Assembly (NCBI GenBank): GCA_965371155.1
Contig: CBDUXL010000001.1
Span: 1 to 52,096, forward strand
Reading direction: 5' to 3'
DNA from: an uncultured bacterium
Lineage (GTDB): Bacteria; JAJVIF01; JAPKYR01
DNA: 52,096 nt
Shown: one piece after another, positions 20,613 to 44,094 of the stretch
How positions within the stretch are numbered: position 1 is the first letter of the stretch
Layout of the letters: each line of letters starts with the position of its first letter
Position numbers and translations under genes: made by a program
The notes under the pieces: generated by a model
What the model saw: the letters and a program-made list of their open reading frames with translations, nothing else
What the model was told of the DNA's origin: nothing
The model's database searches: none

Positions 20613-20927
20613 ACGGAAGCTCACCGGAAGCACTAGATACGCTTCCGGTACCGATTCCGGCAGCCAAAAAACCGTTTGCGCCGTCCCCAACGCAAGTAAT
20701 CATGCGAGTTACAGATATCGATGTCATACTGGAACCCGCTAAACCGGAATCGCCGGAATCGTTTTGGGAATCTTTTATACTAATTTCATTTTTCTTCAAA
20801 GTTTTTAGCATTTTGATTCCTGTGATTCCGGAAAAGTGTATAAAAGCCTTTATTAGTGCGGTTTAGCGATGCCGGAAGCTCCTCCGGAAGCTCCCCGGAA
20901 TCACATCTTGGTCTAATTTGATTCCGG
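20613..20927. promoter_or_regulatory. Iteron-like cluster of CCGGAA(G/T)C motifs flanking an AT-rich stretch; putative replication origin of the element
   Basis: There are ten perfect CCGGAA/TTCCGG hexamers (20624, 20643, 20655, 20744, 20753, 20826, 20872, 20884, 20895, 20922) plus three near copies. An AT-rich block lies at about 20761-20860. Confidence 0.5.
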
Positions 20928-26583: not shown

Positions 26584-26744
26584 TTCCTTTGCATGGGTAG
26601 GAGGCAAGGTCAAACACATCGTTAGGCATAGGCACTTCGGGGTCCCTGCGAGTCTCCATGAAGGGAATCTCTCGCAGGTGCAAACGGCCAAAGGTAAGAT
26701 CCGGTTGATTGGGCATCCGATCAGCAAACGAGGTGGACACAGTA

Positions 26745-27374
26745 ATGGATAGCAACACAGATGACATTGAGTATGCCAAGCTCGAGAAGGAAGCGAAGGA
26801 ATTACTGCAAAGGGTTTCTGAAATTGTTGATGAGCTAGAATGTGCAACATCCAGCGGCGGAAACCTTGCGGCAAAGGAAGAGCAATTAAAGGCTGTCTCA
26901 AAGTCGATTAATACCCTCGAGCGGAAGAATGTAGCAGTGCCTGATAGCCTTAGAGACATGAAAACCAGTCTCTTCTCAGAGATTAGTTTTTCTAATGAGG
27001 TTAAATCAAATCTAGCAAACATAGGCACTGTGCTTGCTTCGATTCTGCAGAGAATCGAAAAGACCCAACCGCGAAGAAAAAGGGGCACAAGAAAGCGCAG
27101 TTACAGCTCGGGCCAGCCTTCTACTCACCATTCCACATACAGACCATTGATCATAAGGGCATTGCAGGAAAAAGGTGGTCAAGCTTCAAAGCATGAAGTC
27201 ATGGAGTGGATCGAAAAGGAGCTTGAAGGCAAATTTCAGCCAGGGGATCTGGAGCTGCGGAGCCGTGGAATACCAACGTGGATTATACGCGTTCAAAATG
27301 AACGATCGTCAATGGTAAGAGATGGAATTATCAAGAAAGATACGCCACAGGGAACTTGGGAGTTAAACGAATAG
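26745..27374 (+). CDS. Coiled-coil protein with a C-terminal Mrr_N-like winged-helix domain
   Basis: The ATG at 26745 follows a GAGGTGG RBS. The C-terminus (LIIRALQEKGGQASKHEVMEWIEKEL...IPTWIIRVQNERSSMVRDGII...GTWELNE) fits the wHTH pattern found at the N-terminus of Mrr-type restriction proteins. Confidence 0.6.
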   Translation: MDSNTDDIEYAKLEKEAKELLQRVSEIVDELECATSSGGNLAAKEEQLKAVSKSINTLERKNVAVPDSLRDMKTSLFSEISFSNEVKSNLANIGTVLASILQRIEKTQPRRKRGTRKRSYSSGQPSTHHSTYRPLIIRALQEKGGQASKHEVMEWIEKELEGKFQPGDLELRSRGIPTWIIRVQNERSSMVRDGIIKKDTPQGTWELNE

Positions 27375-27416: not shown

Positions 27417-27440
27417 GCATGCTCTTCGCCGAGCATGTTT
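27417..27440 (+). terminator. Hairpin plus short T-run after the wHTH gene
   Basis: gCATGCTC-ttcgcc-GAGCATG followed by ttt. The stem uses the same CATGCTC/GAGCATG arms as the 2025-2137 array. Confidence 0.4.
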
Positions 27441-27474
27441 GTGACTCGTCAATCAGACGGCAATGGCGAGTCAC

Positions 27475-27503
27475 TTGCGCCCTGTCATGCCGGCCGCTAC
27501 AAT
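27475..27503 (+). promoter_or_regulatory. Sigma70-like promoter candidate for the seven-gene operon
   Basis: -35 TTGCGC at 27475-27480, a 17-nt spacer, then -10 TACAAT at 27498-27503. It lies about 125 nt upstream of the ATG at 27627. Confidence 0.4.
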
Positions 27504-27626
27504 ATCCATCGGAGGACCGGTCGTGCAGTGGCGTCAATCACATCTGAATTCAGCGCCCCAGTCATCTCGGACCGGGGGCCACTCGCTTCAAGAGATCTTG
27601 ACTGTTCCACCAAGAAGAATGGCGGA

Positions 27627-29750
27627 ATGAAGATGACTCTGAGAGAACTTCCACTAAAGAAAGCCTACATGTCAGACGTGGATGATGTCCTTGCGGATTT
27701 CTTCATTCCAGCTCTTGAAGTGTCGACACAATACAATCGCCTAGCCGCCTTTTTCTCATCCTCAAGCCTGGCAGTTGCTGCAATGGGAATTCTGGGACTG
27801 ATTCGCAATGGTGGCAGCATGAGACTTGTCGTTTGCCCTCGGTTTTCACGAGCGGATGCACAAACGATTCTCGTGGCCAAGGATAATCCTGAAGTATATC
27901 TGACTCGGTATATGTTGTCCGAGCTTGAAGAGCTGCAAGAGGGCTTTGTAAAGGACCACGTCTCAGCTCTAGGGTGGATGGTGGCAAACGATCAATTGGA
28001 GATCCGCGTGTGCATTCCGCGTAACGAACCCAGACGGCTTGACGATTTCAGGAACGTTGATAGTTGGGGGATTTTCCACCCCAAAGTGGGTATCCTTCAG
28101 GATAGTGAAGAGAATTGTGTGACCTTCAGCGGCTCGATCAATGAATCCGCCTCCGGATGGATGCATAACAGCGAGGAATTCAAGGTGTTCCGAAGCTGGG
28201 AGCCCGTCGAGAAGGAGTATCAGCAGTCTGACTTATCGAATTTCGACAGGTTCTGGAACGGTACTTCTCCAACAATGAAGACAATGAGTATTCCCGAAGC
28301 CGTCCAGGAGCGACTGGTTCAGCTTGCACCCAACGACATTGAGAATCTCGCCTTGGAACGCTGGACTCAAAGGCGGTCCAAGGCTCGGAGAAGACAGGTG
28401 ACGCTCTTTGATTATCAGAATGAAGCCGTTCAAGCGTGGCTAGCCAATGAGATGAGAGGAATCTTCGAGATGGCCACTGGTACGGGAAAGACGTTCACCG
28501 CCCTGGGATGCATTGAAGAAGCCTTTGCCAGCGGCGTAGATGGGGCGATCATAGCAACGCCCTTTCAACACCTTTCGCAGCAGTGGATTCGTGAAATAGA
28601 GAAATTCGGTATCGACCACGGTGACATTGTCGTGGCAGACTCCAGCCGCCCACGCTGGAAGGACCGACTTGCCGATTCGCTGATCGATCTGAGCTTGGGC
28701 CACAAGCACAGGTTGCTCGTTCTGACCACACACGCTTCCCTGTCACTGGCCGATTTCCGTGATATCGTTGCAGAGAATCGGGGCAAGTCTCGATTGCTAC
28801 TCATAGCGGATGAGGTCCATGGTCTCGGGGCTAAAGAATCTCGGCAACGACTCAGCGAAGAGTATAATGCCCGTCTCGGACTTAGCGCGACTCCCCATAG
28901 GTGGTTCGATGATGTCGGCACAGCGGCGCTCATGGAATACTTCGGTGGTGTGGTCTATGAGTTCCCTCTCGAACGTGCGATAAACACTGTAAATCCAGCA
29001 ACTGGAACCACATTCCTAACCCCTTACAGGTATGAACTGCGATTTGCATCACTGTCGCAGGATGAAATAGCTGAATACTTGCAGAAGACACAAGCACTAA
29101 TCTATGCCAGAGGTAAGAGTGAATCGAAGTTAGACGAAGATGATTGGTTTGAAAGGCTGCTTTATGCGCGTGCTGACATTGTGAAGAACGCACAGGCGAA
29201 GTACGCTATTCTAGGCAAGATAGTCGACGACCTTGGGAAGGACATTAGGTGGACCCTTGTGTACTGCAGTCCCCAACAAATAGACACTGTCGTTGGACTC
29301 CTGAACGACCGGTCCCTTTCTCTGCACCGCTTCACAATGGAAGAAGGTACAACCCCGAGCAAGAATTACCAAGGTCGAAGCGAGCGCGAGCACATCCTGG
29401 ATAGATTCGCTGAAGGTGAATACCAGACCCTAGTAGCCATGAAGTGTCTTGATGAAGGTGTGGATGTCCCGGCTGCAAGGACAGCCGTTCTGATGTGCAG
29501 TAGCAGCAATCCTCGGGAATACATCCAGCGCATCGGCCGCGTGATTCGACGCTTTCAAAGCAAGACAGTGGCGATGATATACGATATAGTGGTGGCTCCT
29601 TCAATTGAGATGCTACCAGCAGACCTGAGAGAAGTTGAGCGTCGGATCTTTGAAAAGGAAATGACTCGGTGCAAGGAAATAGCTAGAACTGCCGAGAACA
29701 TCTCTGAGGCATTGATCGCCTTGGATGATATCATGAACCGGGTTTTGTGA
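27627..29750 (+). CDS. PLD-family (single HKD) nuclease domain fused to an SF2 (type III restriction res-like) helicase
   Basis: The HKD-like motif is FHPKVGILQDSEENCVTFSGSINES. Helicase motifs are ATGTGKTF (I), LLIADEVHGL (II), LSATP (III) and QRIGRVIR (VI). The ATG at 27627 follows GGCGGA. The 64 upstream codons of the long ORF look non-coding. Confidence 0.8.
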   Translation: MKMTLRELPLKKAYMSDVDDVLADFFIPALEVSTQYNRLAAFFSSSSLAVAAMGILGLIRNGGSMRLVVCPRFSRADAQTILVAKDNPEVYLTRYMLSELEELQEGFVKDHVSALGWMVANDQLEIRVCIPRNEPRRLDDFRNVDSWGIFHPKVGILQDSEENCVTFSGSINESASGWMHNSEEFKVFRSWEPVEKEYQQSDLSNFDRFWNGTSPTMKTMSIPEAVQERLVQLAPNDIENLALERWTQRRSKARRRQVTLFDYQNEAVQAWLANEMRGIFEMATGTGKTFTALGCIEEAFASGVDGAIIATPFQHLSQQWIREIEKFGIDHGDIVVADSSRPRWKDRLADSLIDLSLGHKHRLLVLTTHASLSLADFRDIVAENRGKSRLLLIADEVHGLGAKESRQRLSEEYNARLGLSATPHRWFDDVGTAALMEYFGGVVYEFPLERAINTVNPATGTTFLTPYRYELRFASLSQDEIAEYLQKTQALIYARGKSESKLDEDDWFERLLYARADIVKNAQAKYAILGKIVDDLGKDIRWTLVYCSPQQIDTVVGLLNDRSLSLHRFTMEEGTTPSKNYQGRSEREHILDRFAEGEYQTLVAMKCLDEGVDVPAARTAVLMCSSSNPREYIQRIGRVIRRFQSKTVAMIYDIVVAPSIEMLPADLREVERRIFEKEMTRCKEIARTAENISEALIALDDIMNRVL

Positions 29751-29760
29751 GGAGGGATTT

Positions 29761-29961
29761 ATGTCAGAAGCTAGAATAAACCGCCAGATAATCGATGCGA
29801 TACGCGAGTCTACATCGGACGATCCTCTTATTCAGGAATTTCTTCTGGGTCTTCTTAACATAGAAGCCGAGCACAGCGGTCATTGGCGATGGAAGAAGCC
29901 ATATCAAGACAAGCTGAAGCAGTTCACCAACAGGAGCAAAGACACCGATGAGAATCAGTAG
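29761..29961 (+). CDS. Small (66 aa) operon protein of unknown function
   Basis: A strong GAGGAGGG RBS lies just upstream of the ATG. It starts 10 nt after the helicase stop and overlaps the next gene by 14 nt. Confidence 0.6.
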   Translation: MSEARINRQIIDAIRESTSDDPLIQEFLLGLLNIEAEHSGHWRWKKPYQDKLKQFTNRSKDTDENQ

Positions 29962-31930
29962 AATCGAGCTGCGAAACTACCGTCAGTTCAAACACGCTGT
30001 ACTCTTATTTACGAAAAAGAGCGGAACTGACCTGCATATTTTCATCGGAAGAAATACTGCTGGTAAAACGAACATATTAAATGCCATTAATTGGTGCCTC
30101 TACGAGGATGAACCTCATGTTACTGCACAATACCAAGGCCTGGAGATTCCTAATTTGTTAGCAGTTGATGAGATAGCTGATGAAGGAGAGATTCCTGTAG
30201 TTGTTGAAATCACAGTTGAAAGTGATGACAGGGATTCCCACGTCTTCCGGCGGGAGCAGGTCTTCCGAATTCATGGTCGCCAGAAACCGACATTGCAGCG
30301 AACTGAGTTCCAAGCTAGATTTCAAGGTGATGATGGTAACACAGTCATTCTAAAGGATGATGACGCAACTGAGTATGTGCAGCGTTTTGTACCCAATAAC
30401 ATACGGGAGTACTTCTTCTTCGACGGTGAAAGATTAGATAATTACTTCAAAGAGGAAGCAGGCCAGAAGATTAGGCATGCAGTATTTCAGATTGCACAGA
30501 TCGACCTTTTAGCACGAGTGAATTGTCACCTGGCGGATTTGGTGCACGACCTTGAAAAACAAGCTGCTCGAATCAGTCCTGCTTTAGAAGGTATTAGGAC
30601 CCGTCTTGAGAAGGCCAAGGAAGAAGAGGCTGACTGTAATATTAGATTTGCAGAATGCGAAAAACAGCTGCTTGCAGCAGAAGACGGAACAGTAAAATAC
30701 ACACAGAAGATTTCTGGCCTGCCTGCTGTCGAGAGTCTGGAAGCCGAACGCAAGCAGCTTGGTTCACAAGTCGAGGGACTCCAGAAGATGTTACGCGATA
30801 AGGAGGATGAGAAGGGCGAAGTGTTGTTTAAATTTGGTGTAAGACTGAATATACATGAAGCCCTAAGAAATGCAATTGCTGTGATTGATGATAAGACAAA
30901 AGCCCGTGAAATACCGCCAGCTATAAAAACCGAGATTCTTGAAGATGCATTGGCTAATGGAAGGTGTATTGTTTGCGGAACAGAACTTACCGATGTAAGC
31001 AGGATATGTGTTCAAGAACTGCTTCGGGAAGTTAGCTTATCATCTGAAGTTGCACATGAACTGCATCGAATCGAGGGCCCTTTACGGATGATGGTTGATG
31101 AAACAATGCAATTCGACAAGGGGATTCGCAAAGTCACCCGTGAAATGGAAACAATTAAGAATCAGATTGACAGCCTCCAGCAACGTCGAGAAGAGATTGA
31201 CAGCGACCTTGCGGGTTACGATGTCGAAGAGGTCCGCCATTGGCAAGCTATGCGCAAGGAGTTTGAACAGACGGCAAGGAGCCTAAGGGAGAATCGTGGT
31301 GTACTGAAGGACGCCCAGAACCGAAAAACCAAGGAAGTTGAAGAGTTACAAAAGAAACTTCACACAGAACTTAAAGCAGAGCAAGCGGCTGGTGAATTGC
31401 AATTGCAGATAGAGGTATGCTCAAGTGCACGGGCAGCTGCATACAGAGCTGAACAAGCAGTAATGACAAAAACCCGATCCTTCATCGAACAGAAAACATC
31501 TGAGACCTTCATGGAGCTAGTATGGCGAAAGTCCACGTATGAGGATGTGACAATCGAGGAGAATTACCACATCAGCGTCCACCACTCAATGGGTTACGAC
31601 GCACTGGGAACTTTGAGTGCTGCAGAAAGAGAACTACTTGCCCTATCATTCACATTGGCACTTCACGAAGTGTCAGGCTTCGAAGGACCGTTGCTGATCG
31701 ATACTCCTGTAGCAAGAGTTTCTGACAGTCACCGCGAAAACTTCGCACAAGCTTTGCTTCGCGTAGCAAAAAGAGGGAAGCAGATTATACTTCTGTTCAC
31801 ACCAGACGAATACACCAGCACTGTGAGCAAGCACCTTGAGAACGATGCTGCTTCACGACATGAGATCCGGCTACAGCAAAACGAACGGGAAAGCAAAGTG
31901 GAGGATCTTACCAATGGCGAACGTACCTGA
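29948..31930 (+). CDS. DndD/SspC-like SMC-type ABC ATPase
   Basis: Walker A is IGRNTAGKTNILNAINWCLY. Other motifs: YFFFDGERLDNYF, long coiled coils with a CxxC hook (GRCIVCGTEL), the signature LSAAERELLALSF, and Walker B plus tail LLIDTPVARVSDSHRENF. Confidence 0.8.
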   Translation: MRISRIELRNYRQFKHAVLLFTKKSGTDLHIFIGRNTAGKTNILNAINWCLYEDEPHVTAQYQGLEIPNLLAVDEIADEGEIPVVVEITVESDDRDSHVFRREQVFRIHGRQKPTLQRTEFQARFQGDDGNTVILKDDDATEYVQRFVPNNIREYFFFDGERLDNYFKEEAGQKIRHAVFQIAQIDLLARVNCHLADLVHDLEKQAARISPALEGIRTRLEKAKEEEADCNIRFAECEKQLLAAEDGTVKYTQKISGLPAVESLEAERKQLGSQVEGLQKMLRDKEDEKGEVLFKFGVRLNIHEALRNAIAVIDDKTKAREIPPAIKTEILEDALANGRCIVCGTELTDVSRICVQELLREVSLSSEVAHELHRIEGPLRMMVDETMQFDKGIRKVTREMETIKNQIDSLQQRREEIDSDLAGYDVEEVRHWQAMRKEFEQTARSLRENRGVLKDAQNRKTKEVEELQKKLHTELKAEQAAGELQLQIEVCSSARAAAYRAEQAVMTKTRSFIEQKTSETFMELVWRKSTYEDVTIEENYHISVHHSMGYDALGTLSAAERELLALSFTLALHEVSGFEGPLLIDTPVARVSDSHRENFAQALLRVAKRGKQIILLFTPDEYTSTVSKHLENDAASRHEIRLQQNERESKVEDLTNGERT

Positions 31931-32378
31931 CAGGCTCTATGTTGGCAAGGGCGACATTGAGCTCTACAACAAGCTTCAGCAGGAGTGGATACTTCGAGGG
32001 AAGTCGCGAAAGGAGCAATTCATGCTTGCACTGGCATTTGGCTTCAAGAACGGAGTATCAGACGAAATTGACCAACCAAAGGAGTTTTTCAGACGGGAGT
32101 ATCTGCGGACTGAAGATGAAGCTTTGCTCTATGCAGTTGCTATCAAAGCCAAGGGCGAGTTGGACTTACTCAGTGACTTAGAAGCAGTATTCAAGATAGC
32201 CCAGGAGTATGCACACGCAGGCATTCGTCTTCTTGCTGACGAGATTGCCGGTACTTCCTTTGGCAGCTTCGAGAAAAAGTTCGAAAAAAGCCTTTTCGAG
32301 ATCTTTGAGGAATTGACGAAGTCCAGCGACACTGAGACCGCCCCCAGCGACCCATCAGGCGCAAGCTCCGGCAGTTGA
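31914..32378 (+). CDS. Small helical protein in the DndE position (weak DndE-like pattern)
   Basis: The ATG at 31914 follows a GTGGAGGA RBS and overlaps the upstream gene by 17 nt. The helical pattern ending in YAHAGIRLL resembles my recollection of the DndE family end. The C-terminal tail is acidic and Ser-rich. Confidence 0.4.
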   Translation: MANVPDRLYVGKGDIELYNKLQQEWILRGKSRKEQFMLALAFGFKNGVSDEIDQPKEFFRREYLRTEDEALLYAVAIKAKGELDLLSDLEAVFKIAQEYAHAGIRLLADEIAGTSFGSFEKKFEKSLFEIFEELTKSSDTETAPSDPSGASSGS

Positions 32379-32447: not shown

Positions 32448-33452
32448 ATGCAGGATAATACTGCAATAATTGAACTTTGCGGGATTGTCGGCAAGTGCGG
32501 AAGTCTTGATGTTTTTCTCGGTTTTGCTCCCGCTAGACTTCTGCATTCTATCTCCCTCGTGGACGTTCTGAACGAAGACACAGGGAAAGGCTACCAGCGT
32601 CCCCGTAATCGGCGGCACAGTCTGGACTTCAAGCAGTACATCTCCCGTCAAGACAGTTCCACCATTCCATTGACTTTCAACCTTCGTTCTGAGTTGTCCG
32701 ACGCATGGGAAATCAGAATTGAAGGTGATGGGCATGCAACGCTCCGCATTTGTCCATCAGTGAAGTGCTTGGCCCAGGTTGACTGTCAACACCGTCTAGG
32801 TGAGCTACACGATTCGGATATACCGCTGGCTTTCATGACATTTATCAGCCTAGACCTCCGAGCAGAAATGGGGTTATTTGTAATCATCAACAGCAAGGCC
32901 AAAGGTCTGAGTTCTTCCCTTACGGACTTTCATGAAAGCAATTTGCTCAATGACCTTGCCGCCGAGTCTCCGCATCTATATATAGCTCGCAAACTAAACG
33001 AAGACCCGCAGTCTCCCTGGTTCAGATTAATTCGATATGGTGGAGAAACTACCGCTGGGCTAAAAAGGCGGACGTCTTTTCGCATGATGCAGAAAACCAT
33101 AGCTAAGCTGCTCAATCAAATTAAGTCGCTGGACATTGGGAGCGTCGAGGATAAGTACGCTTTAGTTGTTTCCTTCTGGCGTGCCGTAGCTACTGTTTTC
33201 AGTGATGAATGGCAAGATCACCGACATAACCTCCTGACAAAGGGAGTGGGGCTTTATTCGCTCACTCTCTTACTGGCTGACTTTGTGCGAGGTGCTGGAA
33301 CAGCTTCATTGGACGATCAGTTCTTCATCCAGCAACTTAAACCCTTGAAGGAGAGAATTGATTGGAACACCAAGGGCATGTTCGCTGATGCTGGTGGTCA
33401 AAAGGGTGCAGTTGAAGTCTATCAAAAGATTAAGGAGTTCGCTAAGGCATGA
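32448..33452 (+). CDS. DGQHR-domain (DndB-like, ParB/Srx fold) protein
   Basis: The motif VDCQHRLGEL is a DGQHR variant. It is preceded by GKGYQRPRNRRHSLDFKQYI and followed by FVIINSKAKGLSSSL. The start codon is moderately supported. Confidence 0.7.
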   Translation: MQDNTAIIELCGIVGKCGSLDVFLGFAPARLLHSISLVDVLNEDTGKGYQRPRNRRHSLDFKQYISRQDSSTIPLTFNLRSELSDAWEIRIEGDGHATLRICPSVKCLAQVDCQHRLGELHDSDIPLAFMTFISLDLRAEMGLFVIINSKAKGLSSSLTDFHESNLLNDLAAESPHLYIARKLNEDPQSPWFRLIRYGGETTAGLKRRTSFRMMQKTIAKLLNQIKSLDIGSVEDKYALVVSFWRAVATVFSDEWQDHRHNLLTKGVGLYSLTLLLADFVRGAGTASLDDQFFIQQLKPLKERIDWNTKGMFADAGGQKGAVEVYQKIKEFAKA

Positions 33453-35020
33453 GGGTCTTGATGGTAGAACCTCAGTATCGAAGGCTGCGTCCAGAAAAGA
33501 GAAACGCACCTAACTCAAAACTGGATGACAGCACTCTCTGGTACCCTCCGCTTGGCCTCCTGAAATTATCAAGGTTCCACAAGGACCGTGGGGACGAAGT
33601 TCGATTCGTCAGCGGTTGCGACCCTAACGTTTTTCATTGCCAGGATCTCTTCAACCCAGCTGATTTGTGGGACCGCGTTTATATAACCACGCTTTTTACC
33701 TATCACTTTGACCGCATAGTCAAGACAATCAAGTTCTATCTAGAGGCAGTCGGCGGTACTGTAGGTAAGATTTTCGTTGGTGGAGCCATGGCATCCTTAA
33801 TGCCGGACGCGGTTTTTGAGGAAACAGCGGTCTATCCTATTCTTGGCGTGCTTAACTCGCCTGAGCCACTTCGCCTTTCGGGCAACACAAATATCGACAT
33901 GCTGCCACTCGACTACGAGCTACTCGACCCGACGCTCTACGCAATCAATGACACTTTCTATGCCTACACGACCAGGGGTTGTACGAACCATTGTCCCTGG
34001 TGCGGCGTTCCCAGACTGGAGCCTGAGTATATCCCCTACATCGACATAAAGCCCATGATACTGGAAATGAGAGACCTGTACGGGGACAAGGCTAACTTGA
34101 AGCTGATGGACAACAACGTCCTGGTCAGTCCAGAGCTCCCGCGGATTGTGGACGACCTTCTGGAACTTGGCTACGGTCGAGGACAGCACACTGAGACTCA
34201 CTCTAAGAAACAACGCGTGGTCGATTTCAACCAGGGACTTGATGTAAGTCCCTTGAATAAGAAGACGATGCGTTTGCTCGCAAAACTCAATATCCGCCCT
34301 GTGAGGATAGCCTTTGACAGACTACGTGAAAAGGATGAATACGTGCGTGCTCTGGAACTTGCTAATAGACACGGGGTAAATGAGTTCTCGAACTACATGC
34401 TGTACAACTTCAATGACACACCGCGTGACTTGTATGAGCGGCTTTGTGTGAACATCCACCTGAATGAAAAATGGCTGGAAGACATGCCCGATCGCATGGC
34501 TGGAAAAATCTACAGCTATCCCATGCGATATGCACCGATCGATGATGATTCAGGAAGCGGTGCCAGCAGACGGCGAGACCACTTGACCATGGAGACTGCA
34601 GGCCAACGAGACTGGCTGCTCAGACCGTTGTGGACGCGCCGCTTCATACGAAATATCGAAATTATGAAAGGTGCAGCACATGGTGCGATCTCCCCAACTC
34701 CTACACTCGCCTGGCGAACCATAGGCGCAACATTCGAAGAGTTCCTTGTAAATCTCTACATGCCCGAAGAGCTTCTACGCAATCGCAATGAGCACGAGCG
34801 TCGCGTCTACGAGGATGAACCGAAGCGAAAACCTGGCACGGGGAAGGTGGAGGAATTCAGGAGATTTGTGCTCACCTTACTCGAGGGGGGCGGTGAGAGA
34901 TTTTGCCAGTTCCACAATGCAGTTAGCGCTAACTCCACCCAAGTTGTCAAGGCTTCTTTGCAGGAGATCAAAGATCCTGAGATCAGGAGATGGTTGAAAT
35001 GGTACCTCAAGCGAAGATGA
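33449..35020 (+). CDS. Radical SAM enzyme with an N-terminal Rossmann/B12-binding-like region
   Basis: The CX3CX2C motif is in YTTRGCTNHCPWCGVP. The N-terminal WYPPLGLLKLSRFHKDRGDEVRFV resembles class B radical SAM N-domains. There is an ATGA overlap with the DGQHR stop. Confidence 0.8.
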   Translation: MRVLMVEPQYRRLRPEKRNAPNSKLDDSTLWYPPLGLLKLSRFHKDRGDEVRFVSGCDPNVFHCQDLFNPADLWDRVYITTLFTYHFDRIVKTIKFYLEAVGGTVGKIFVGGAMASLMPDAVFEETAVYPILGVLNSPEPLRLSGNTNIDMLPLDYELLDPTLYAINDTFYAYTTRGCTNHCPWCGVPRLEPEYIPYIDIKPMILEMRDLYGDKANLKLMDNNVLVSPELPRIVDDLLELGYGRGQHTETHSKKQRVVDFNQGLDVSPLNKKTMRLLAKLNIRPVRIAFDRLREKDEYVRALELANRHGVNEFSNYMLYNFNDTPRDLYERLCVNIHLNEKWLEDMPDRMAGKIYSYPMRYAPIDDDSGSGASRRRDHLTMETAGQRDWLLRPLWTRRFIRNIEIMKGAAHGAISPTPTLAWRTIGATFEEFLVNLYMPEELLRNRNEHERRVYEDEPKRKPGTGKVEEFRRFVLTLLEGGGERFCQFHNAVSANSTQVVKASLQEIKDPEIRRWLKWYLKRR

Positions 35021-36585
35021 ACAGCAAACCCACCTGCATTCAAATAGGCCCGAAGATCATCGAAGTCCTCACAACGGGAATGTACAGCAATCCTCTCATG
35101 GTGATTCGGGAGTATGTGCAGAACTCCGTTGACGCCATAGACCTTGCCACTGAACAGGGGACTATAGACCACGAAGATAGCATCATTGACATCCATTTGA
35201 ACGGTGGGAATCGATGCATTTCAGTCAAGGACAATGGGATTGGTGTTCCTAACGACGAGGTTGAGCAGGTTCTGTGCGCACTGGGTTGCAGCAAGAAGAA
35301 CCTAGGTTGCCACAGAGGCTTTCGAGGCATAGGCCGACTGGGGGGAGTTGGATACTGCGACGTTGTCCAGTTCGAGACTCGAAGTCACCCCAGGGAACAA
35401 GTGGCCATCATTGAATGGGACGGCAGGAAGCTCAGGAAACGCCTACAATCTGGGAGAAAGACTGCCAAGGCCGCCGTACGGGAGTGTGTACGAATCGGCT
35501 ATCGACCGGCAGAAAAGAGAGAAGGTGGCCACTTCTTCCAAGTGCGCCTTATGGGGGTCCGACGTTTTCACAAGGATGAGCTCATGAACGTCGGGGTTAT
35601 TACGTCCTACCTCGGTCAGGTTGCCCCCGTTGCTTTCGACAAAGCTCGATTCAGTTTTGCCAAGGAAGTTGAGGAGCATCTTCGAGAAGTCGATGGGTTC
35701 GCATGCTATCGAATCCGGGTGAATAGTCAGCAAGTGTACCGACCTCACGCGGATACTTTTGAGGTCACGGCAAATCGCCACGGCAGGATTCACGGTATCG
35801 AGCTCCTTGATATAACAAGAACTGACGGAAGGTCCTTAGGACGCGGTTGGTATGCCAAGACCGAGTACTTGGCCTCGATCCCGCCCCGGATCGGCATGCG
35901 CGGTGTGAGAATACGCCAAGGAAACATCGAAATCGGTGACGAGTACTTCCTTGCTAACACCTATGCAGAGCGCAGGTTCGCGACTTGGCACATTGGGGAG
36001 ATACATCTGGGATACACCTTGATAGCTAATGCTCGACGCGATGGGTTTGAGCAGTCTTCGGATTACGAGGCGTTTCTCGAGCAGGCGAGCATTCTCGGCG
36101 CTCACCTCAGCTACCTGTGTCGGAAGTCTTCGAAGAACCGGAGCGGGATTGCTGCCGTCGAAAGTGCACTAGGCCGGCTGGAGGCCCTTGTGGGAAGTGA
36201 GCTCTACGTGGACGATCAACATTTGCATTGCGCAAAGGCCGAGGCGTCGAGGCTTTTGGGAATATTGGCAGAGTATGCTGACAAAGGATGGCTTCGTGCG
36301 GATTCCCTTCGAAAACTGTCAACACTCCAGAAAGCAACGGACCGATTGGACAGCAATGTAGAATTCCTGGCGGATGCGTTGGACGGCCGGAAGCTGCACC
36401 ACCGCTCTAAGCGAACCCTACTGGAGGCCGTGGCCAGAGCGGTAGCTGAAAGCCAGGACGGAGATGTAGTTACAGACGCCTTGCTGTTGCGAATCTTTGG
36501 CCCGTACCTGAAGCCGAAGCAATTGGGAAACAAAAGGAACCCGAAAGCAAAAGTGAGGAACCAACCGAAGAGAAGGAAAGGTTAA
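35017..36585 (+). CDS. GHKL (HATPase_c_3, MORC/MutL-like) ATPase
   Basis: Bergerat-fold motifs: IREYVQNSVDA (N box), VKDNGIGV (G1) and GFRGIGRLGGVGY (G2). I prefer the ATG at 35017, which overlaps the radical SAM stop (ATGA). The C-terminal tail is basic. Confidence 0.8.
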   Translation: MNSKPTCIQIGPKIIEVLTTGMYSNPLMVIREYVQNSVDAIDLATEQGTIDHEDSIIDIHLNGGNRCISVKDNGIGVPNDEVEQVLCALGCSKKNLGCHRGFRGIGRLGGVGYCDVVQFETRSHPREQVAIIEWDGRKLRKRLQSGRKTAKAAVRECVRIGYRPAEKREGGHFFQVRLMGVRRFHKDELMNVGVITSYLGQVAPVAFDKARFSFAKEVEEHLREVDGFACYRIRVNSQQVYRPHADTFEVTANRHGRIHGIELLDITRTDGRSLGRGWYAKTEYLASIPPRIGMRGVRIRQGNIEIGDEYFLANTYAERRFATWHIGEIHLGYTLIANARRDGFEQSSDYEAFLEQASILGAHLSYLCRKSSKNRSGIAAVESALGRLEALVGSELYVDDQHLHCAKAEASRLLGILAEYADKGWLRADSLRKLSTLQKATDRLDSNVEFLADALDGRKLHHRSKRTLLEAVARAVAESQDGDVVTDALLLRIFGPYLKPKQLGNKRNPKAKVRNQPKRRKG

Positions 36586-37143: not shown

Positions 37144-37590
37144 ATGATTAATCCGGTGCACTTGATCCTTACCTTCCGAATATCCGCCCTCTGAGCGGTT
37201 CTGAACACAGGAATAGTCCAGTTTTTTGCAGGGCAAATCGGACCAGCTCCCGCTTGCCTTCGCGAGCAACCCTTTGATCGAGCTGCGACGGAGCCTCGAG
37301 GTGGCGATGGCCATGGTAAGAAGTAGATGGGGATTGGATACAATCGGCCCGGCACGTAGCAGAGGAGGAGCAGGACAGGATGAAAAGAGCGGTTAATCTA
37401 GGGAATACTCATGGCAGGATGGCTTCGAACTGGATAGCAGAAAATCCCTTCAACTGCCTTGCCGGAAACGTGAGTAATACCTGCTGGCAAACGAACACTG
37501 GCAATGATACAATTATTTGACACCAGACTGCGGGAAATTGAATGTTATCATAGCTGGCGATTTACCTTAACAACCAGAATGGAGGTTATC

Positions 37591-40485
37591 ATGAAACGGT
37601 TAATTACATTACATGTGGCTTTATTGCTTGGTTTTCTCATTCTGTCATGTTCCGGGTCCCTGGACGGGCCTGTTGTACCTGGTTCGGATCCGTCACCCAA
37701 CCTGGTAACCGGTCAAGAAACAGGATCCGCTTATAACAGTACTCATTTGTGGGGCCTCTGGGATGTCTTTGTCGATCCGGAAAATGGGAAGGTTGATGCA
37801 GTTCCTCTGAGAGGGATTGCTTTCGCATGCAATGTTGCGGGATATGTCGACGGACCACCATCGAATCTGCTCTTTCAAAACCTGACGATCGACATCCAGG
37901 TGGATTACACTGACATTGCACTGGATGTCGGGCTTCAGCATCCATTTCCGGGACTCGACACGTATACTGGATTCGACGTGCTGGGAGTATTCATGGGTGA
38001 AGGAACCGATGTTTGTCCCGGGGCAGGTGGATATGCGGTCGCTGGTGAAGATGATCAGCGTTTGCTGAATCCAGAATGCTACACGAGATGGTTCAATGCA
38101 ACGGAATTCAGCGACACCGGAATGCCTCTTTTGGGGTACTCACCGGGGAAATCCGGAACTCCAGGCTACACACCATCCGCTGTGTTAAACCCATGCAAGT
38201 ATTTTGCCGACGGACTGGACAACGAAGCTGATGCGTATGAATTCCTCGTGAATAACGCAGATGACCGCGGTTGTTTCAAACCCGGCAGTGTCAATTTTCG
38301 TCATTACGATCTCCGATTTCCTCTGTCAACAGGGATAAAGTTCCAGTATGCAGTAATCGCACACTGGGAAGATTCGGGAATGCAAGGTCCACTTCCGGAT
38401 GATTTTCCACCGAGCGCGAACGCCATTGAGGCACTAGTAATTGATATTGAAGACTCAAGCACTGCTTATTACGTTGACGAAACCAATTTCGGGGGTAACG
38501 TGGTTCTTGATATTTCCCTGCCGATTTACGGGCATGATTATCCTGTGACCGATCCGGATTTAATGAATATCAAATGCTACTCTGACGCCTGGACCGGGGA
38601 ATTTGCGGTCGACATGACACCGGTAGGCGGCGGGGACCACTATTCAACGTGGTGTGCCGATATAGCTGTTGAGGGCCTTGATTCCATTGATCCGCTTCCG
38701 GTGTGGATTGAATTCAATTATCCCGAGCTGGACTATTCGAACGAGTTGGGGATTGTGAATGACGCGGCTGGCTCACTGGCAGGGTATTTCCTTTATGAGG
38801 TCCCGATCAACGACAGTCTCCCGATGTGGATCGAGGTACTAACACCGAACGGTGGTGAGGAATGGGTTCCTGGCGATGATGAAGAAATCACGTGGAACTC
38901 GTCCGGTGTTGCGGGAACCGTTTTCATTGAGTATTCAAATGATAATTTCGTGTCGGATGTCAATACGATTGCGACCGATGAAGTTAATGACGAGAGCTAC
39001 ATGTGGACTGTCCCCTGCGTGATTTCCGATACACTTCGGGTGAGAGTCAACTCTACTGATAATCCCTCAGTTAACGATACATCAGACGATGATTTTAGCA
39101 CCGTTACGAGCGGTTGGGCGGAAACATGGGGCGCTGCGAATGCTGATCGTGGATATGGAATCGCAGTTGATTCGGTCGGGAACTCCTACATTACGGGCTA
39201 CAACGAAACCTCCTGGAATGTCGGTGATGTTTTCCTGAGGAGATACAACGCGTGCGGTGAGTTGCTCTGGGAAAAAACCTGGGGAAGTTCTGGTGATGAC
39301 CGGGGTTATGGGGTCGCGGTTGACGATTCAGGCAATGTCTACGCAACAGGAAGGTTTTCGGGTACGGTCGATTTCGATCCAGATGGTGGGACGGAAAATC
39401 ACATATCGAATGGGGGTCCCGATATTTACCTGAGCAAGTTCGAACCATCCGGTGCTTTCCAATGGGCGAAAACATGGGGTGGCACTTCATATTACGGCGA
39501 TGAAGGCTGGGATGTAACTGTTGACGATTCCGGAAATATTCTTGTGATTGGCAATTTCGTCGGATCGAACGTGGATTTTGATCCTGACGGCGGTACCGAG
39601 TACCACAGCTCGAATGGCGGCAAGGATCATTGCCTTAGCAAATTTGATTCATCCGGTGCCTTCCAGTGGGCAAAAACATGGGGCGGAGGCAGCGATGAGG
39701 GCTGGTACACCGGAATCGATACGGACAGCTCGGGGAATGTTTTTGTCGCGGGTTATTTCCACGGTACCAATGTCGATTTTGATCCCGGACCTCCCAGTGA
39801 GACTCACAGTTCGCAGGGCAGGGATGTCTTCGTGAGCAAATTCGATACGAATGGTGATTTTCAATGGGTTGCAGTGTGGGGTGGCGTAAGCTCATTCGAT
39901 GAAGCTTATGGCGTAACAGTCGACAGCCAGGGATACGTGTATTCCACAGGAAGATGGGAGTACACGATCGATTTCGATCCCGGTGCGCCAACTGATTACA
40001 AGACTTCAAATGGCCATTTTGATGTCTTTGTCAGCAAGCTCGATTCGGACGGGAATTACCTGGGCGTGATTGTCTTTGGCGGGTCGAGTTACGAGATCGG
40101 AAACAAGCTCGCGACTGACGAATCCGACAATCTCTACCTCATTGGTTATTTCCGTGGCACCAATGTTGATTTCGATCCGGGTGCCGGCACCGATCCCAGG
40201 AGTTCACATGATGATGGTGGGTACCCGGGAACCGATGTGTTCATGAGCAAATTCAATTCATCGGGAGAGTTCCAGTGGGCACGAAACTGGGGGCCATCAA
40301 ACAGCAGTGACGGTTACGATATCGATATCGATGGTTCAGGGAATATCTATGCCTGTGGTGCATTCAGGACCACGGTCGATTTCGCTCCACCCGACACACC
40401 CTGCAACGAGGATCCGGATGGGCACACATCGAACGGCAGTATCGACGCGTTCGTTGCCAGGTATCTCCCGAACGGCTGCTGGTAG
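37591..40485 (+). CDS. Lipoprotein with the shared N-terminal module and a C-terminal SBBP beta-propeller repeat array
   Basis: The ATG at 37591 lies 5 nt downstream of a GGAGG RBS. The lipobox is FLILSCSG. The N-module carries HLWGLWDVFVDPENG, QHPFPGLDTYTGFDVLGVF and FQYAVIAHW. About 8 SBBP-type repeats occupy the last ~450 aa. Confidence 0.8.
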   Translation: MKRLITLHVALLLGFLILSCSGSLDGPVVPGSDPSPNLVTGQETGSAYNSTHLWGLWDVFVDPENGKVDAVPLRGIAFACNVAGYVDGPPSNLLFQNLTIDIQVDYTDIALDVGLQHPFPGLDTYTGFDVLGVFMGEGTDVCPGAGGYAVAGEDDQRLLNPECYTRWFNATEFSDTGMPLLGYSPGKSGTPGYTPSAVLNPCKYFADGLDNEADAYEFLVNNADDRGCFKPGSVNFRHYDLRFPLSTGIKFQYAVIAHWEDSGMQGPLPDDFPPSANAIEALVIDIEDSSTAYYVDETNFGGNVVLDISLPIYGHDYPVTDPDLMNIKCYSDAWTGEFAVDMTPVGGGDHYSTWCADIAVEGLDSIDPLPVWIEFNYPELDYSNELGIVNDAAGSLAGYFLYEVPINDSLPMWIEVLTPNGGEEWVPGDDEEITWNSSGVAGTVFIEYSNDNFVSDVNTIATDEVNDESYMWTVPCVISDTLRVRVNSTDNPSVNDTSDDDFSTVTSGWAETWGAANADRGYGIAVDSVGNSYITGYNETSWNVGDVFLRRYNACGELLWEKTWGSSGDDRGYGVAVDDSGNVYATGRFSGTVDFDPDGGTENHISNGGPDIYLSKFEPSGAFQWAKTWGGTSYYGDEGWDVTVDDSGNILVIGNFVGSNVDFDPDGGTEYHSSNGGKDHCLSKFDSSGAFQWAKTWGGGSDEGWYTGIDTDSSGNVFVAGYFHGTNVDFDPGPPSETHSSQGRDVFVSKFDTNGDFQWVAVWGGVSSFDEAYGVTVDSQGYVYSTGRWEYTIDFDPGAPTDYKTSNGHFDVFVSKLDSDGNYLGVIVFGGSSYEIGNKLATDESDNLYLIGYFRGTNVDFDPGAGTDPRSSHDDGGYPGTDVFMSKFNSSGEFQWARNWGPSNSSDGYDIDIDGSGNIYACGAFRTTVDFAPPDTPCNEDPDGHTSNGSIDAFVARYLPNGCW

Positions 40486-44000: not shown

Positions 44001-44094
44001 CTTCAACCCGCCGGGGAATGATTTCGGTGTGGAAGTTTCGACCCAATATGCTTATGTAGTGGGATCAGGCGGTGTGTGGATCATCAAGCTCTGA
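41032..44094 (+). CDS. Lipoprotein with the shared N-terminal module and ~13 LVIVD beta-propeller repeats
   Basis: The lipobox is AIAVGCSG. The N-module carries HSLWSYYLIYVD, THPFTNANLTGFDVRGIAMF, FGYAVDTSW and DFPVSANCPEP. Repeats follow the pattern GL.VIDI.PPE.A. Confidence 0.85.
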   Translation: MELSIRCGLILTLVMAIAVGCSGLDNPSMPSMPDEAANTPVLTANSQPVEEAGSHSLWSYYLIYVDTTSPGDIRIEAVPLRQIVGHWNALSWLEQAPCTYCLQVVGITPSGYGTQLVDIKITHPFTNANLTGFDVRGIAMFSGSHSFPMAGLNTPDRNAGDGELVNADGYTTLYNYTTTGSGPDGLEGYIQGNLASATPPDALLNGYKRFVSQGSANTRNAFYVSESIIEIYEIDMPDGPFVFGYAVDTSWVPTLTKPVTDPIADFPVSANCPEPWKIEITEEAVSGGLTSDGGATKLLIDVFDWQGRTTHKEPVVECPEIFTGALIANYLADGAGYSRWEVTVENELLAHAGDYKCLISVEDNENDPANKPWLDLTAYQIPVLKVSTESFPIDVTPPWLNFTPTDVCFDGNYAYTVGNINGLHIFDISDPVNPLWVNAVETPDDARAVYVTGGYAYVTVYEDWPDPFTGLLVIDISLPESAHVVNSIEIPGCGSYAVTVSDGFAHVAASNGGLVIIDVDPADSAFILSTVDEEISCAFDVAILDGYAYVPVLWLDSTGGGYTYSLKVIDIDPPEQAHVVKTVETPTSTHCVDVSDGYAFVGVRTTVAGFQVVDIDPPEMANIIHTVDTQGLPYYLTVEEGYAYVSCAGETYNDDVGLQIFDIGDPEFSYSAGWAPTPEYIKASDVKDEYAYVTTHFSGLHVIDINPPETSVIVNSIHSSGSPFQVSVDENDGYLYVAAGVSGLQVIDIDPPESAHYIDPVYNLGTFNIACVENGYAYVAYDGQPEICELAIIDIDPPESMQIVNSLQWTGTVPYGIDTSDGLLYVVFRYNNYTDRLHIIDVDPPESAAIINTSDTLGYGGIDVSDGLLYLAYEGVTDWIGVSGFQIIDIDPAELAHSVSDLDLAGYPKDVAVSQDYAYVAGFDKNWEFGYLHVIDVDPPELLEIVDTVETPDIILDVAVAGDRAFVADRYNGLQIINISSPFDAFIETTFNPPGNDFGVEVSTQYAYVVGSGGVWIIKL

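Follow-up and report, generated by a model that had tools for sequence, protein, structure and literature searches.

The analyzed stretch of DNA, hereafter the window, is 52,096 nucleotides long and contains a seven-gene operon that encodes, in order, a small protein, PbeA, PbeC, a DndE-like protein, a DGQHR-domain protein, a radical SAM enzyme (rSAM) in the sixth position and a GHKL ATPase (Table 1). The operon is located in a low-GC island that adjoins a serine recombinase. No tRNA gene marking the island was found, and scans for an operon promoter and terminator performed no better than on shuffled sequence.

Table 1. Genes and sequence features of the operon, with their positions in the window.
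Feature	Position	Strand	Description
Small protein, 221 aa from TTG	26709..27374	+	First operon gene; coiled-coil and C-terminal globular region
PbeA, HKD/PLD-like nuclease and SF2 helicase fusion	27435..29750	+	PADLOC PbeA 5.5e-218
PbeC, CxC-type DndD-like ABC ATPase	29948..31930	+	PADLOC PbeC 3.6e-144
DndE-like / PbeD-like small protein	31914..32378	+	17-nt overlap with the 3' end of PbeC
DGQHR-domain protein, ParB/Srx fold, DpdB/DndB-like, DCQHR motif variant	32448..33452	+	TIGR03187 above cut-off
ATGA overlap	33449..33452	+	DGQHR stop and rSAM start; likewise called in L001, L003 and the P0078 contig
Radical SAM enzyme (rSAM), 523 aa	33449..35020	+	1-170 Rossmann/B12-binding-like; ~170-390 radical SAM partial barrel; ~395-523 conserved Arg-rich helical domain
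CX3CX2C motif (C178, C182, C185), for SAM-cleaving [4Fe-4S] cluster	33980..34003	+	Only invariant cysteines in alignment A1
rSAM 3' / GHKL 5' overlap	34990..35020	+	Candidate starts 34990 (homologous), 34999 (best SD spacing), 35017 (ATGA)
Hsp90-like GHKL ATPase	34990..36585	+	Bergerat N-domain, middle domain, long helical C-terminal region

PbeABCD systems were reportedly described by Xiong et al. in 2019. The presence of PbeA and PbeC in one operon assigns the locus to this PbeABCD/CxC-ABC-ATPase type. PbeA, the predicted restriction effector, was also matched by TIGR04095 (dnd_restrict_1; 3.1e-117, below the cut-off) and phospholipD_antiphage (6.6e-18), and by the Pfam models ResIII and Helicase_C above the cut-off and, weakly, PLDc_2 (0.0091). 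The PbeC model fits its protein far better than the DndD model does (TIGR03185, 2.7e-34, below the cut-off). The DndE-like protein showed a weak match to TIGR04062 (dnd_assoc_4, 6.9e-4) and 24% identity (1e-4) to its equivalent in locus L036, and homologs come after PbeC in loci L012 and L020. For the product of the first gene, Pfam, NCBIfam and PADLOC yielded weak coiled-coil matches at most; judged by its position, it may take the role of the small, fast-evolving PbeB, as described in PMC10853773. The same study re-analyzed the PbeABCD/CxC-ABC-ATPase-DndE systems and described the CxC clade of ABC ATPases, and it reports that the modification role in these systems otherwise falls to phosphorothioation genes or cytosine methylases. 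The scanned open reading frames of the 52-kb window yielded no DNA methylase, DndA, DndC/PAPS-reductase or cysteine desulfurase, and the Dnd phosphorothioation system (DndABCDE) was rejected because neither DndA nor DndC is present there. The preliminary description had likened the place of rSAM to the slot of DndC in Dnd systems. Because the operon is of the Pbe type and the window has no DndA or DndC, rSAM would be better compared to the modification enzyme of a Pbe-type system and the slot that this holds.

The DGQHR protein belongs to the DGQHR/DndB-DpdB family of ParB/Srx fold, as indicated by its motif and by TIGR03187 (1.8e-38, 132.8 bits against a cut-off of 58.85 bits). It was also recognized by the PADLOC DpdB model (2.3e-22) and by NF041060, the DpdB equivalog, below the cut-off (3.7e-23, 82 bits against 300 bits). 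At least 90% of 21 aligned sequences share the conserved segments GYQR, QVDCQHRLG and INSKAxGLS.

The rSAM gene was confirmed as an open reading frame with an ATG start, its first methionine lining up with the N-termini of 36 homologs in the alignment. As noted in the preliminary description, the DGQHR gene stops and the rSAM gene starts in a single ATGA (gcATGAgg), and the same 4-nt overlap was called in three homologous loci (Table 1). No model in Pfam, NCBIfam or PADLOC covers the rSAM family: PF04055 fell just below its cut-off (E 5.2e-6, 27.2 bits against 29.5 bits), the sole NCBIfam match was a weak one to the lipid-biosynthesis B12/rSAM family TIGR04072 (1.7e-4), and a PDB sequence search and a profile search with rSAM gave nothing usable. 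A structure comparison, as had been recommended at the outset, supported a radical SAM fold with a B12-binding-like Rossmann domain at the N-terminus. In the AF2 model (mean pLDDT 88.5) this domain alternates between beta and alpha elements, and PF02310 matched residues 32-128 below the cut-off (E 3.4e-4). Foldseek gave a probability of 1.0 to AprD4, MiaB, RimO, HydG and LAM, with the 1,2-diol dehydratase AprD4 as the best structural match (E 3.6e-9) and with MiaB/MtaB and CysS (9e-6) likewise supporting the Rossmann assignment; among the viral models in BFVD, all matches were radical SAM proteins with generic names. The CX3CX2C motif and the partial TIM-barrel core together place the protein in the radical SAM superfamily. 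AprD4, MiaB/MtaB/RimO and CysS, matched at E 3.6e-9 to 9e-6 with a probability of 1.0, have in common with rSAM the two-domain fold and the position of the CX3CX2C motif, but identities to AprD4, MiaB/MtaB and CysS are merely 11-13% with TM scores of approximately 0.42-0.47. As further differences from this group, rSAM has no auxiliary-cluster cysteines or TRAM domain (no TRAM match in Pfam) and contains a family-specific, Arg-rich C-domain, the last 130 residues being all-helical in the AF2 model.

The single CX3CX2C motif recognized earlier was upheld by an alignment of 37 sequences, in which its three cysteines are the only invariant ones. Auxiliary-cluster cysteines, which it had been proposed to look for, were not conserved outside the motif in this alignment, C57 being replaced in many homologs. 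MiaB/RimO-type chemistry requires an auxiliary cluster. Methylthiolation and sulfur insertion, both among the reactions suggested at first, are thus disfavored because no cysteines are conserved beyond CX3CX2C, and a MiaB-like methylthiotransferase was rejected on the same cysteines and on the TRAM domain. CysS is a cobalamin-dependent class B radical SAM methylase, a group with a Rossmann-type cobalamin-binding domain at the N-terminus, and rSAM has this fold. AprD4, which is as similar to rSAM as CysS is, has a B12-binding-like N-domain yet is not known to use cobalamin. The targets of the nearest solved folds are a small molecule (AprD4), tRNA (MiaB/MtaB) and a carrier-bound metabolite (CysS).

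With AprD4 as the best structural match, rSAM could act on a free nucleotide or another small molecule to yield a toxic or chain-terminating nucleotide, by viperin-like or AprD4-like dehydration, or a signal, in which case its neighbors would be independent or downstream of it. The prokaryotic viperins are examples of radical SAM enzymes whose products are antiviral nucleotides, which also speaks for such a product. A viperin-like identity was nevertheless rejected, since the 50 PDB matches listed by Foldseek include no viperin and PADLOC had no match for rSAM, and the former also counts against the small-molecule reading. Further in its favor, Ophion pairs a radical SAM protein with nucleotide-metabolizing enzymes, according to a preprint (bioRxiv 10.1101/2025.09.30.679545). 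Ophion itself, with its PHP and PRTase partners as given there, was set aside as a different radical SAM defense system.

At its 3' end the rSAM gene overlaps the GHKL gene, as had been claimed, and an ATGA is present at 35017-35020. The GHKL start that had been read from this ATGA was not retained, as 34990 and 34999 are in-frame ATG codons further upstream. Close relatives start GHKL at an ATG overlapping the codon of the invariant rSAM Trp515, 28 nt ahead of the rSAM stop and with an AGGAG-like box in front. The equivalent position in the window is 34990, and an AGGAG at 34985-34989 has a spacing that would favor 34999. Because the family-conserved start lies upstream, the GHKL gene probably starts at 34990 or 34999, and 35017 was rejected; the overlap amounts to 31, 22 or 4 nt with a start at 34990, 34999 or 35017, respectively. 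The tight coupling of rSAM to both neighbors is upheld. Stoichiometric co-expression of rSAM with its DGQHR and GHKL neighbors is something that we infer from these junctions rather than observe.

The GHKL protein contains HATPase_c_3 (8.3e-8), with Pfam PF13589 above the cut-off, and motifs I (ExxxN), II (DxGxG) and III (GxxGxG), of which E41/N45/D48, D81/G83/G85 and G110-G119 are invariant across 35 sequences. The best match was to the HSP90 family PRK14083 (9e-15), as compared to 3e-8 for topo VI-B and 2e-5 for MutL, and PADLOC gave merely a marginal model match. With the AF2 model (pLDDT 84.6), Foldseek retrieved TRAP1, GRP94 and Hsp90 at approximately 1e-15, and all 50 matches listed are Hsp90, TRAP1 or GRP94. 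The protein had initially been taken for a DNA-binding or DNA-manipulating partner, a role that is putative; by sequence and fold it is Hsp90/TRAP1-like and not MutL/topo VI-like, and a MutL/MORC/topo VI-type identity was rejected with the Hsp90 family as the nearest. An Hsp90-like GHKL protein could handle a protein client.

The rSAM family is large and unnamed, with more than 3,400 homologs, approximately 1,000 clusters at 50% identity (E<=1e-10) and more than 500 loci in species-representative genomes. Its members are currently annotated merely as "radical SAM protein" or "hypothetical". We examined 80 loci, which are the best-scoring matches of a pattern-seeded scan and not a random sample. 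Downstream sequence of 1.5 kb or more was available for 73 loci. In 55 of these a GHKL gene was no more than 120 nt away from the rSAM stop, in most cases as an overlap (4 nt in 22 cases and 28 nt in 5), and the remaining 18 had no adjacent GHKL gene. A DGQHR gene was immediately upstream of rSAM less often (28 of 78 loci), and in one homolog of 791 aa (P0242) a DGQHR-like N-terminus is fused to rSAM (E 4e-45). Pairwise identities of rSAM and GHKL were correlated across 57 loci (r = 0.86; Mantel test, none of 999 permutations as high). rSAM and GHKL form a stable pair, and rSAM is far more conserved than its partners (~60% vs ~40% identity). The system also resides on mobile DNA elsewhere: the conjugative plasmids pNL1 of Novosphingobium aromaticivorans DSM 12444 and pR132505 of Rhizobium leguminosarum WSM1325, both cultivable bacteria, carry the DGQHR-rSAM-GHKL triad, as SARO_RS17520-17530 and RLEG_RS34120-34130, respectively.

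The rSAM-GHKL unit is shuffled among five or more nuclease/helicase modules. These are PbeA-PbeC-DndE-like (8 loci and the window), DrmA (2.2e-159)-DrmB (8.3e-64)-NERD helicase (11 loci), ParB-like protein-small protein-SNF2 (ZorD/DpdE-like)-ParB-like protein (26 loci), a DndB protein of approximately 766 aa with weak, sub-threshold matches to a Card1-like nuclease and HEPN (14 loci), and AIPR/AbiU (3 loci). Even rSAMs that are more than 50% identical were found with different modules. A nuclease/helicase or other defense-type module was recognized within approximately 8 kb in 68 of the 80 loci, and the other 12 had no recognizable nuclease partner. In five Pbe-type loci (L018, L022, L036, L059 and L079), rSAM comes directly after the DndE-like gene, with neither GHKL nor DGQHR, and no enzyme other than rSAM accompanies the Pbe proteins. 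Minimal three-gene forms consist of AIPR-rSAM-GHKL or of the large DndB fusion-rSAM-GHKL. The DNA association put forward in the preliminary description was thus borne out at the level of gene neighborhoods, which are overwhelmingly DNA-directed, with helicases, nucleases and ParB-fold proteins, and not of the peptide- or lipid-modifying kind that it had named beforehand as evidence against this association.

These neighborhoods bear on two alternatives. The Hsp90-like nature of the GHKL protein and the TIGR04072 match would fit an rSAM that modifies a protein, peptide or lipid, like many radical SAM enzymes with a B12-binding domain, with GHKL as its chaperone and the DNA-related neighbors as chance cargo of the island. 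We consider this highly improbable, given that no precursor peptide, transporter, lipid or glycan gene is conserved near rSAM, that DNA-targeting modules accompany it in 68 of 80 loci, spread over many phyla and archaea, and that the DGQHR fusion exists. The small-molecule reading is distinctly unlikely in the same light: with a GHKL ATPase and ParB-fold proteins as its invariant partners, rSAM has no conserved gene for a nucleotide kinase, phosphatase, PRTase or synthase beside it, and strict coupling to helicase-nucleases is unexpected for a diffusible product.

Short, solitary rSAM homologs are common in phages, with at least 504 matches in IMG/VR and a match to phrog_9298 (1.2e-36). Their commonest neighbor is a PAPS_reduct (DndC-family) protein, present in 19 of 67 loci, and genes for ASCH, VRR-NUC and Dam/Dcm methylases were also found nearby, a pattern that would be expected for orphan modification enzymes. 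This resemblance to protective modification is difficult to reconcile with a third alternative, in which rSAM-GHKL is a sensor or effector on invading DNA that introduces radical lesions or strand breaks, or processes foreign modified bases, for helicase-nucleases to exploit. The DNA-centered neighborhoods suit that alternative as well as self-marking, the components of the minimal three-gene forms could jointly hit an invader, and ATP-driven GHKL clamps are plausible switches. We nonetheless regard it as unlikely, since the module holds the methylase/Dnd position of Pbe- and DISARM-type systems; the higher conservation of rSAM than of its partners, a weak discriminator, also fits a fixed chemistry on a universal substrate.

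Our best explanation, to which we give close to an even chance, is that the DGQHR protein, rSAM and the Hsp90-like GHKL protein form one co-translated, self-marking DNA-modification module of a restriction-modification-like defense system, with the PbeABCD-type module proposed as the restriction half in the window. Directly established are the domain composition, the gene overlaps, rSAM-GHKL conservation, module shuffling and, among the scanned open reading frames of the window, the lack of another modification enzyme such as a methylase, DndA or DndC/PAPS-reductase. The stability of the pair, the swapping of modules, the solo rSAM in five Pbe loci, the DpdB-like partner, the phage copies and the location on mobile DNA were also counted in favor. 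Counted against marking were the Hsp90-like GHKL protein, the non-DNA substrates of the nearest folds and the loci without a nuclease (12/80) or GHKL (18/73). We infer every step of the mechanism, and it is the gene context that points to DNA as the substrate. By analogy with DpdB, the ParB-fold DGQHR NTPase may help the enzyme to reach duplex DNA, and a dimeric GHKL ATP clamp could likewise aid access or confer specificity; no sequence-specificity element was identified. A [4Fe-4S] cluster on C178/C182/C185 would cleave SAM reductively, and the resulting 5'-deoxyadenosyl radical would take a hydrogen from a DNA nucleotide to leave a covalent mark. This could be a C-methyl group if the N-domain binds cobalamin, or else an adduct or rearrangement. 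PbeC and the DndE-like protein would scan the DNA, and the HKD-nuclease/helicase PbeA would attack it where unmarked.

More broadly, and with somewhat less than an even chance, we suggest that this is the first cellular restriction-modification-type epigenetic system with a radical SAM writer, in which the DGQHR NTPase, rSAM and the Hsp90-like ATPase lay a chemically unprecedented genomic mark that is read by interchangeable Pbe, DISARM-like, SNF2/ParB or AIPR modules, and which phages counter with a stripped-down copy of the enzyme. If so, radical C-H functionalization would join methylation, phosphorothioation and 7-deazaguanine among the self-marking DNA modifications, self/non-self discrimination would be explained in many Pbe/CxC and DrmAB-type loci without methylases or Dnd genes, and a function would be provided for the approximately 1,000 clusters of the family.

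The full-text literature searched, together with a targeted reading of PMC10853773, PMC3632139, PMC3226654, PMC3710099, PMC12839542 and the Ophion preprint, gave no description of the DGQHR-rSAM-GHKL module. We compared the operon to the systems that resemble it most. Like PbeABCD systems, it has PbeA, PbeC, a DndE-like gene and a preceding small protein in a single operon, but the systems described in PMC10853773 are tied to dndCDEA or cytosine methylases, neither of which is in the window, and the continuation into DGQHR-rSAM-GHKL is a combination that this study does not mention. As in Dpd (DpdA-DpdB-DpdC with DpdD-K), a DGQHR/ParB-fold protein lies beside a modifying enzyme. Among named proteins, DpdB matches the DGQHR protein best, and the SNF2 partner in related rSAM loci is also DpdE-like. 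In Dpd, the ATPase activity of DpdB is needed for DpdA to modify DNA (PMC10164549). The operon differs from Dpd in having a radical SAM protein as its enzyme, with no TGT-like DpdA or DpdC, and in a DGQHR protein far below the DpdB equivalog cut-off. Among radical SAM enzymes, action on DNA has been reported only for spore photoproduct lyase (SPL) and gp53 of phage M6, an SPL-like isomerase that was the first radical SAM enzyme described to install a DNA modification (PMC8989533). The substrate of gp53 is an already hypermodified thymidine in phage DNA, and unlike rSAM both enzymes are of the SPL-like lineage, with no GHKL or DGQHR partner and no restriction module. As compared to DISARM (DrmA-DrmB with a DrmMI/MII methylase), the arrangement in the window is different, and the 11 loci with DrmA/DrmB homologs have a NERD helicase instead of a recognized methylase or DrmC; in these loci, however, rSAM-GHKL follows the DrmA/DrmB homologs at the place where the DISARM methylase sits.

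The 523-aa open reading frame of the radical SAM enzyme (rSAM) was confirmed in the window, and its homologues begin at the same methionine in the alignment, with the N-terminus MR(V/I)LLVEP. As previously claimed, its ATG shares an ATGA (gcATGAgg) with the TGA that ends the gene for the DGQHR protein, a DpdB/DndB-like neighbour with a ParB/Srx fold, and the identical 4-nt overlap was present in independent gene calls on other contigs. A second ATGA, at 35017-35020, was said to join the rSAM stop to the start of the gene for the GHKL protein, an Hsp90-like ATPase. Here the coupling stands, but the start at 35017 is probably wrong, since the start used by the relatives maps further upstream. 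In the closest relatives, the GHKL ATG overlaps the codon for the invariant Trp515 of rSAM; it is placed 28 nt ahead of the rSAM stop and 7-8 nt downstream of an AGGAG-like box. Additional in-frame ATGs occur in the window at 34990, which is the equivalent of the relatives' start, and at 34999, to which the AGGAG at 34985-34989 has the better spacing. In the more distant half of the family, the rSAM/GHKL overlap is usually ATGA or GTGA. The coupling of rSAM to both neighbours is real and conserved.

The rSAM gene is the sixth of seven in a co-directional, closely spaced operon (see table). The window ORFs scanned included no methylase, DndA or DndC/PAPS reductase. The operon is located in a lower-GC stretch of about 30 kb (47-53%, as compared to 56% in the glycogen-metabolism flank), which opens with a large serine recombinase gene followed by a gene for a weakly VapE-like protein, and in which a pair of STAND NTPase genes and a gene for an Mrr-like nuclease-domain protein are also located; this stretch is an acquired defence-type island. 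The recombinase and its neighbour (18777-22589, minus strand) form the left edge of the lower-GC stretch, which reaches to about 50 kb and is probably an integrated mobile element with the defence operon as cargo; a search of the window for tRNA genes gave none. The STAND NTPase genes flank the island cargo, and the Mrr_cat protein may be a further defence gene. Two genes for very large secreted proteins are situated directly 3' of the operon, and a third gene of the SBBP type is found in the housekeeping flank.

Features of the operon, the island and the flank in the window
Feature	Position	Strand	Matches and domains
Operon gene 1, small coiled-coil protein (221 aa)	26709-27374	+	
Operon gene 2, PbeA	27435-29750	+	PADLOC 5.5e-218
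Operon gene 3, PbeC	29948-31930	+	CxC-type DndD-like ABC ATPase, 3.6e-144
Operon gene 4, weakly DndE-like protein	31914-32378	+	
Operon gene 5, DGQHR	32448-33452	+	TIGR03187 1.8e-38; best named relative DpdB
Operon gene 6, rSAM	33449-35020	+	
Operon gene 7, GHKL	34990-36585	+	
SBBP protein	2192-3745	-	
Serine recombinase	18777-20525	-	Resolvase, Recombinase, Zn_ribbon_recom
VapE-like protein	20913-22589	-	VapE and AAA_23, both weak
STAND NTPase	23854-26229	-	TPR array, TrmB/MarR-like wHTH
Secreted protein	37504-40485	+	SBBP beta-propeller and LVIVD repeats
Secreted protein	41032-44094	+	SBBP beta-propeller and LVIVD repeats
Mrr_cat protein (1,027 aa)	45393-48476	+	N-terminal Mrr_cat 1.6e-9; remainder without recognised domain
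STAND NTPase	49769-52084	-	TPR array, NACHT

In an alignment of 37 homologues that are 58-82% identical to the window protein, C178, C182 and C185 were the only invariant cysteines, in agreement with the single CX3CX2C motif of the preliminary description, and no cysteine beyond these three was conserved. Methylthiolation or sulfur insertion had also been suggested; the single cluster argues against such MiaB-type chemistry, which is unlikely for rSAM. The confident AlphaFold2 model (pLDDT 88.5, pTM 0.84) consists of a Rossmann-like N-domain, as had been proposed, a radical SAM core and, from about residue 395, an all-helical C-domain rich in invariant arginines (including R398, R401, R423, R444 and R446). 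The Pfam matches to Radical_SAM (E 5.2e-6) and B12-binding (E 3.4e-4, residues 32-128) fell just below the gathering score; C-methylation with cobalamin is possible. The only NCBIfam match was weak (1.7e-4) and to a lipid B12/rSAM family, a model for the rSAM family was absent from both NCBIfam and PADLOC, and PDB sequence and profile searches gave no match. The top fold match in the PDB was AprD4 (3.6e-9), followed by MtaB/MiaB (1.7e-8 to 3e-7), the cobalamin-dependent CysS (9e-6) and RimO, all at 11-13% identity and TM 0.36-0.47. Because these matches are remote and rSAM belongs to no curated family, it is a distinct lineage within the group that combines a Rossmann domain with a radical SAM core. 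The match to AprD4 speaks for a nucleotide or small-molecule product, formed by viperin-like chemistry or AprD4-type dehydration, a reading to which we assign a low probability.

In the DGQHR proteins that adjoin rSAM, the motifs GYQR, QVDCQHRLG and INSKAxGLS are invariant or nearly so, and a ParB/Srx-type NTPase or nuclease site is probably kept. The homologue DpdB is an ATPase required for the insertion of preQ0 into DNA by DpdA in the Dpd system (PMC10164549). The GHKL protein is a predicted Hsp90-like ATP clamp, because the Bergerat ATP-binding motifs are all retained, HtpG and TRAP1 profiles match its N-domain (1e-12), and its AlphaFold2 model (pLDDT 84.6) matches the N-terminal and middle domains of TRAP1, GRP94 and Hsp90 (~1e-15, TM ~0.45); a long helical region follows these domains.

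We clustered the ORFs around 80 non-redundant loci, the best-scoring subset from pattern-seeded scans, in which ORFs were called mechanically and some starts are over-extended. Of the 73 loci whose sequence extends far enough downstream, 55 had a GHKL homologue directly 3' of rSAM, and a DGQHR protein was encoded immediately 5' in 28 of 78. The divergences of rSAM and GHKL were tightly correlated (r = 0.86, 57 loci; Mantel 0/999), with rSAM more conserved (about 60% identity to the window protein versus about 40% for GHKL). One homologue, P0242, known from its protein sequence alone, is a 791-aa fusion of a DGQHR-like N-terminal region and rSAM; the stretch with the DCQHR motif is deleted in the pairwise alignment, which may leave the fused domain without catalytic activity.

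The partner modules comprised a ParB-like protein, a small protein, a SNF2 helicase (ZorD/DpdE-like) and another ParB-like protein (26 of the 80 loci); a large DndB protein with weak, sub-threshold matches to a Card1-like nuclease and HEPN (14 loci); DrmA, DrmB and a NERD helicase (11 loci, mostly Clostridia); PbeA, PbeC and a DndE-like protein (8 loci and the window); PIN_8 with a second GHKL (6 loci); and AIPR/AbiU (3 loci). Four of these types are represented among rSAMs that share more than 50% identity with the window protein, so exchange of the modules takes place over short evolutionary distances. Five Pbe-type loci lack both DGQHR and GHKL, and rSAM there comes after the DndE-like gene.

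Several additional features were observed at these loci. The PIN_8 protein and its paralogous GHKL ATPase lie beside the DGQHR-rSAM-GHKL triad on alphaproteobacterial plasmids and chromosomes (e.g., L084 4042-7595 on pNL1, L085 12206-15722 on pR132505, and L029 14234-17747) and look like an independent PIN-GHKL two-gene system. In the clostridial DrmA-DrmB-NERD loci (L017, L027, L039, L043, L053, L056, L075, L081, L082), rSAM reaches 670-705 aa, an extension of about 150 residues, and a conserved gene for ~360-550 aa with only a weak bactofilin-like match is located 5' of DrmA. Pbe-type loci with rSAM usually open with a protein of ~840-1,085 aa, encoded upstream of PbeA, with sigma-70 region 4 and RNA polymerase alpha-CTD-like domains (L018, L022, L036, L059, L079, L011), whereas the window lacks it and has the 221-aa protein at the head of its operon. 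In two unrelated contigs (L003 13257-15745, minus strand, and that of P0078), the strand opposite the triad carries, next to it, a second, divergent gene of the DndB family whose translation is coupled to that of a metallo-beta-lactamase-fold gene; the pair may be a separate two-gene module. Another recurrent cluster adjoins the triad in Acidobacteriota (L047 14005-18343, L041, L066, L069, L078) and encodes DUF5131 (Gp37/Gp68-like), a HerA/TrwB-like ATPase, a further GHKL paralogue and an unannotated ~320-aa protein.

More than 3,463 rSAM homologues were present in a database clustered at 90%. The best 120 of these are 57-95% identical, come from spirochaetes, Smithella, Fibrobacterota, Armatimonadota and Asgard archaea, and are all annotated as "hypothetical" or "radical SAM protein". 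When 1.84 billion representatives at 50% identity were searched exhaustively with a profile, 1,855 clusters were recovered at E<=1e-3, 1,006 at E<=1e-10 and 294 at E<=1e-30; at least 506 loci were confirmed in species-representative genomes. The triad is also carried by the conjugative plasmids pNL1 and pR132505 of cultivable bacteria, under the RefSeq names "DGQHR domain-containing", "radical SAM" and "ATP-binding" protein only.

A short, solitary form of about 305 aa, which spans query residues ~32-320 and has no C-domain, is frequent in phages (14 GenBank records, at least 504 IMG/VR matches) and matches phrog_9298 at 1.2e-36. A PAPS_reduct gene (DndC-family PP-loop) was among its closest neighbours in 19 of 67 phage loci, often directly upstream, and ASCH, DUF551 and VRR-NUC genes were recurrent; in Bacteroides and Phocaeicola phages, the short form lies beside Dam and cytosine methylase genes. 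This neighbourhood is a typical home of orphan DNA-modifying enzymes. In gut phages (IMG/VR contigs L097-L169), the PAPS_reduct gene often directly 5' of the short form encodes 279 aa (e.g., L123 5117-5956), a hint that the two enzymes form one pathway in these phages.

Whether or not DGQHR accompanies it, the rSAM-GHKL pair has the character of a portable cassette, combined with otherwise unrelated helicase/nuclease defence modules and filling the slot where Pbe, DISARM and Dpd hold DNA-modifying enzymes. Because of this position, and because the window yielded no other modifier, the most parsimonious interpretation is a restriction-modification (R-M)-like system in which a radical SAM enzyme would be the writer and the two NTPases would assist its access to, or specificity for, DNA; as the arguments for it all come from gene context, we place it slightly short of an even chance. 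That the pair is instead a sensor or effector directed at the invader has a smaller, still appreciable probability, and that rSAM acts on a non-DNA substrate is very improbable; what is left falls to a function not yet imagined.

An identity of the window system with Dnd, Dpd or DISARM was rejected. On the restriction side, it is of the same kind as PbeABCD, which is equated with the CxC-ABC-ATPase/DndE systems in PMC10853773; according to that paper, some such systems come with genes for phosphorothioation, others with cytosine methylases, and others without any modification gene that could be recognised, and a radical SAM or GHKL partner is not mentioned there. No description of the DGQHR-rSAM-GHKL module was found in the literature searched, the coverage of which is incomplete. 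[quoted passage not shown] We therefore regard the window system as a putative defence system of the R-M-like type whose candidate modification enzyme is unprecedented.
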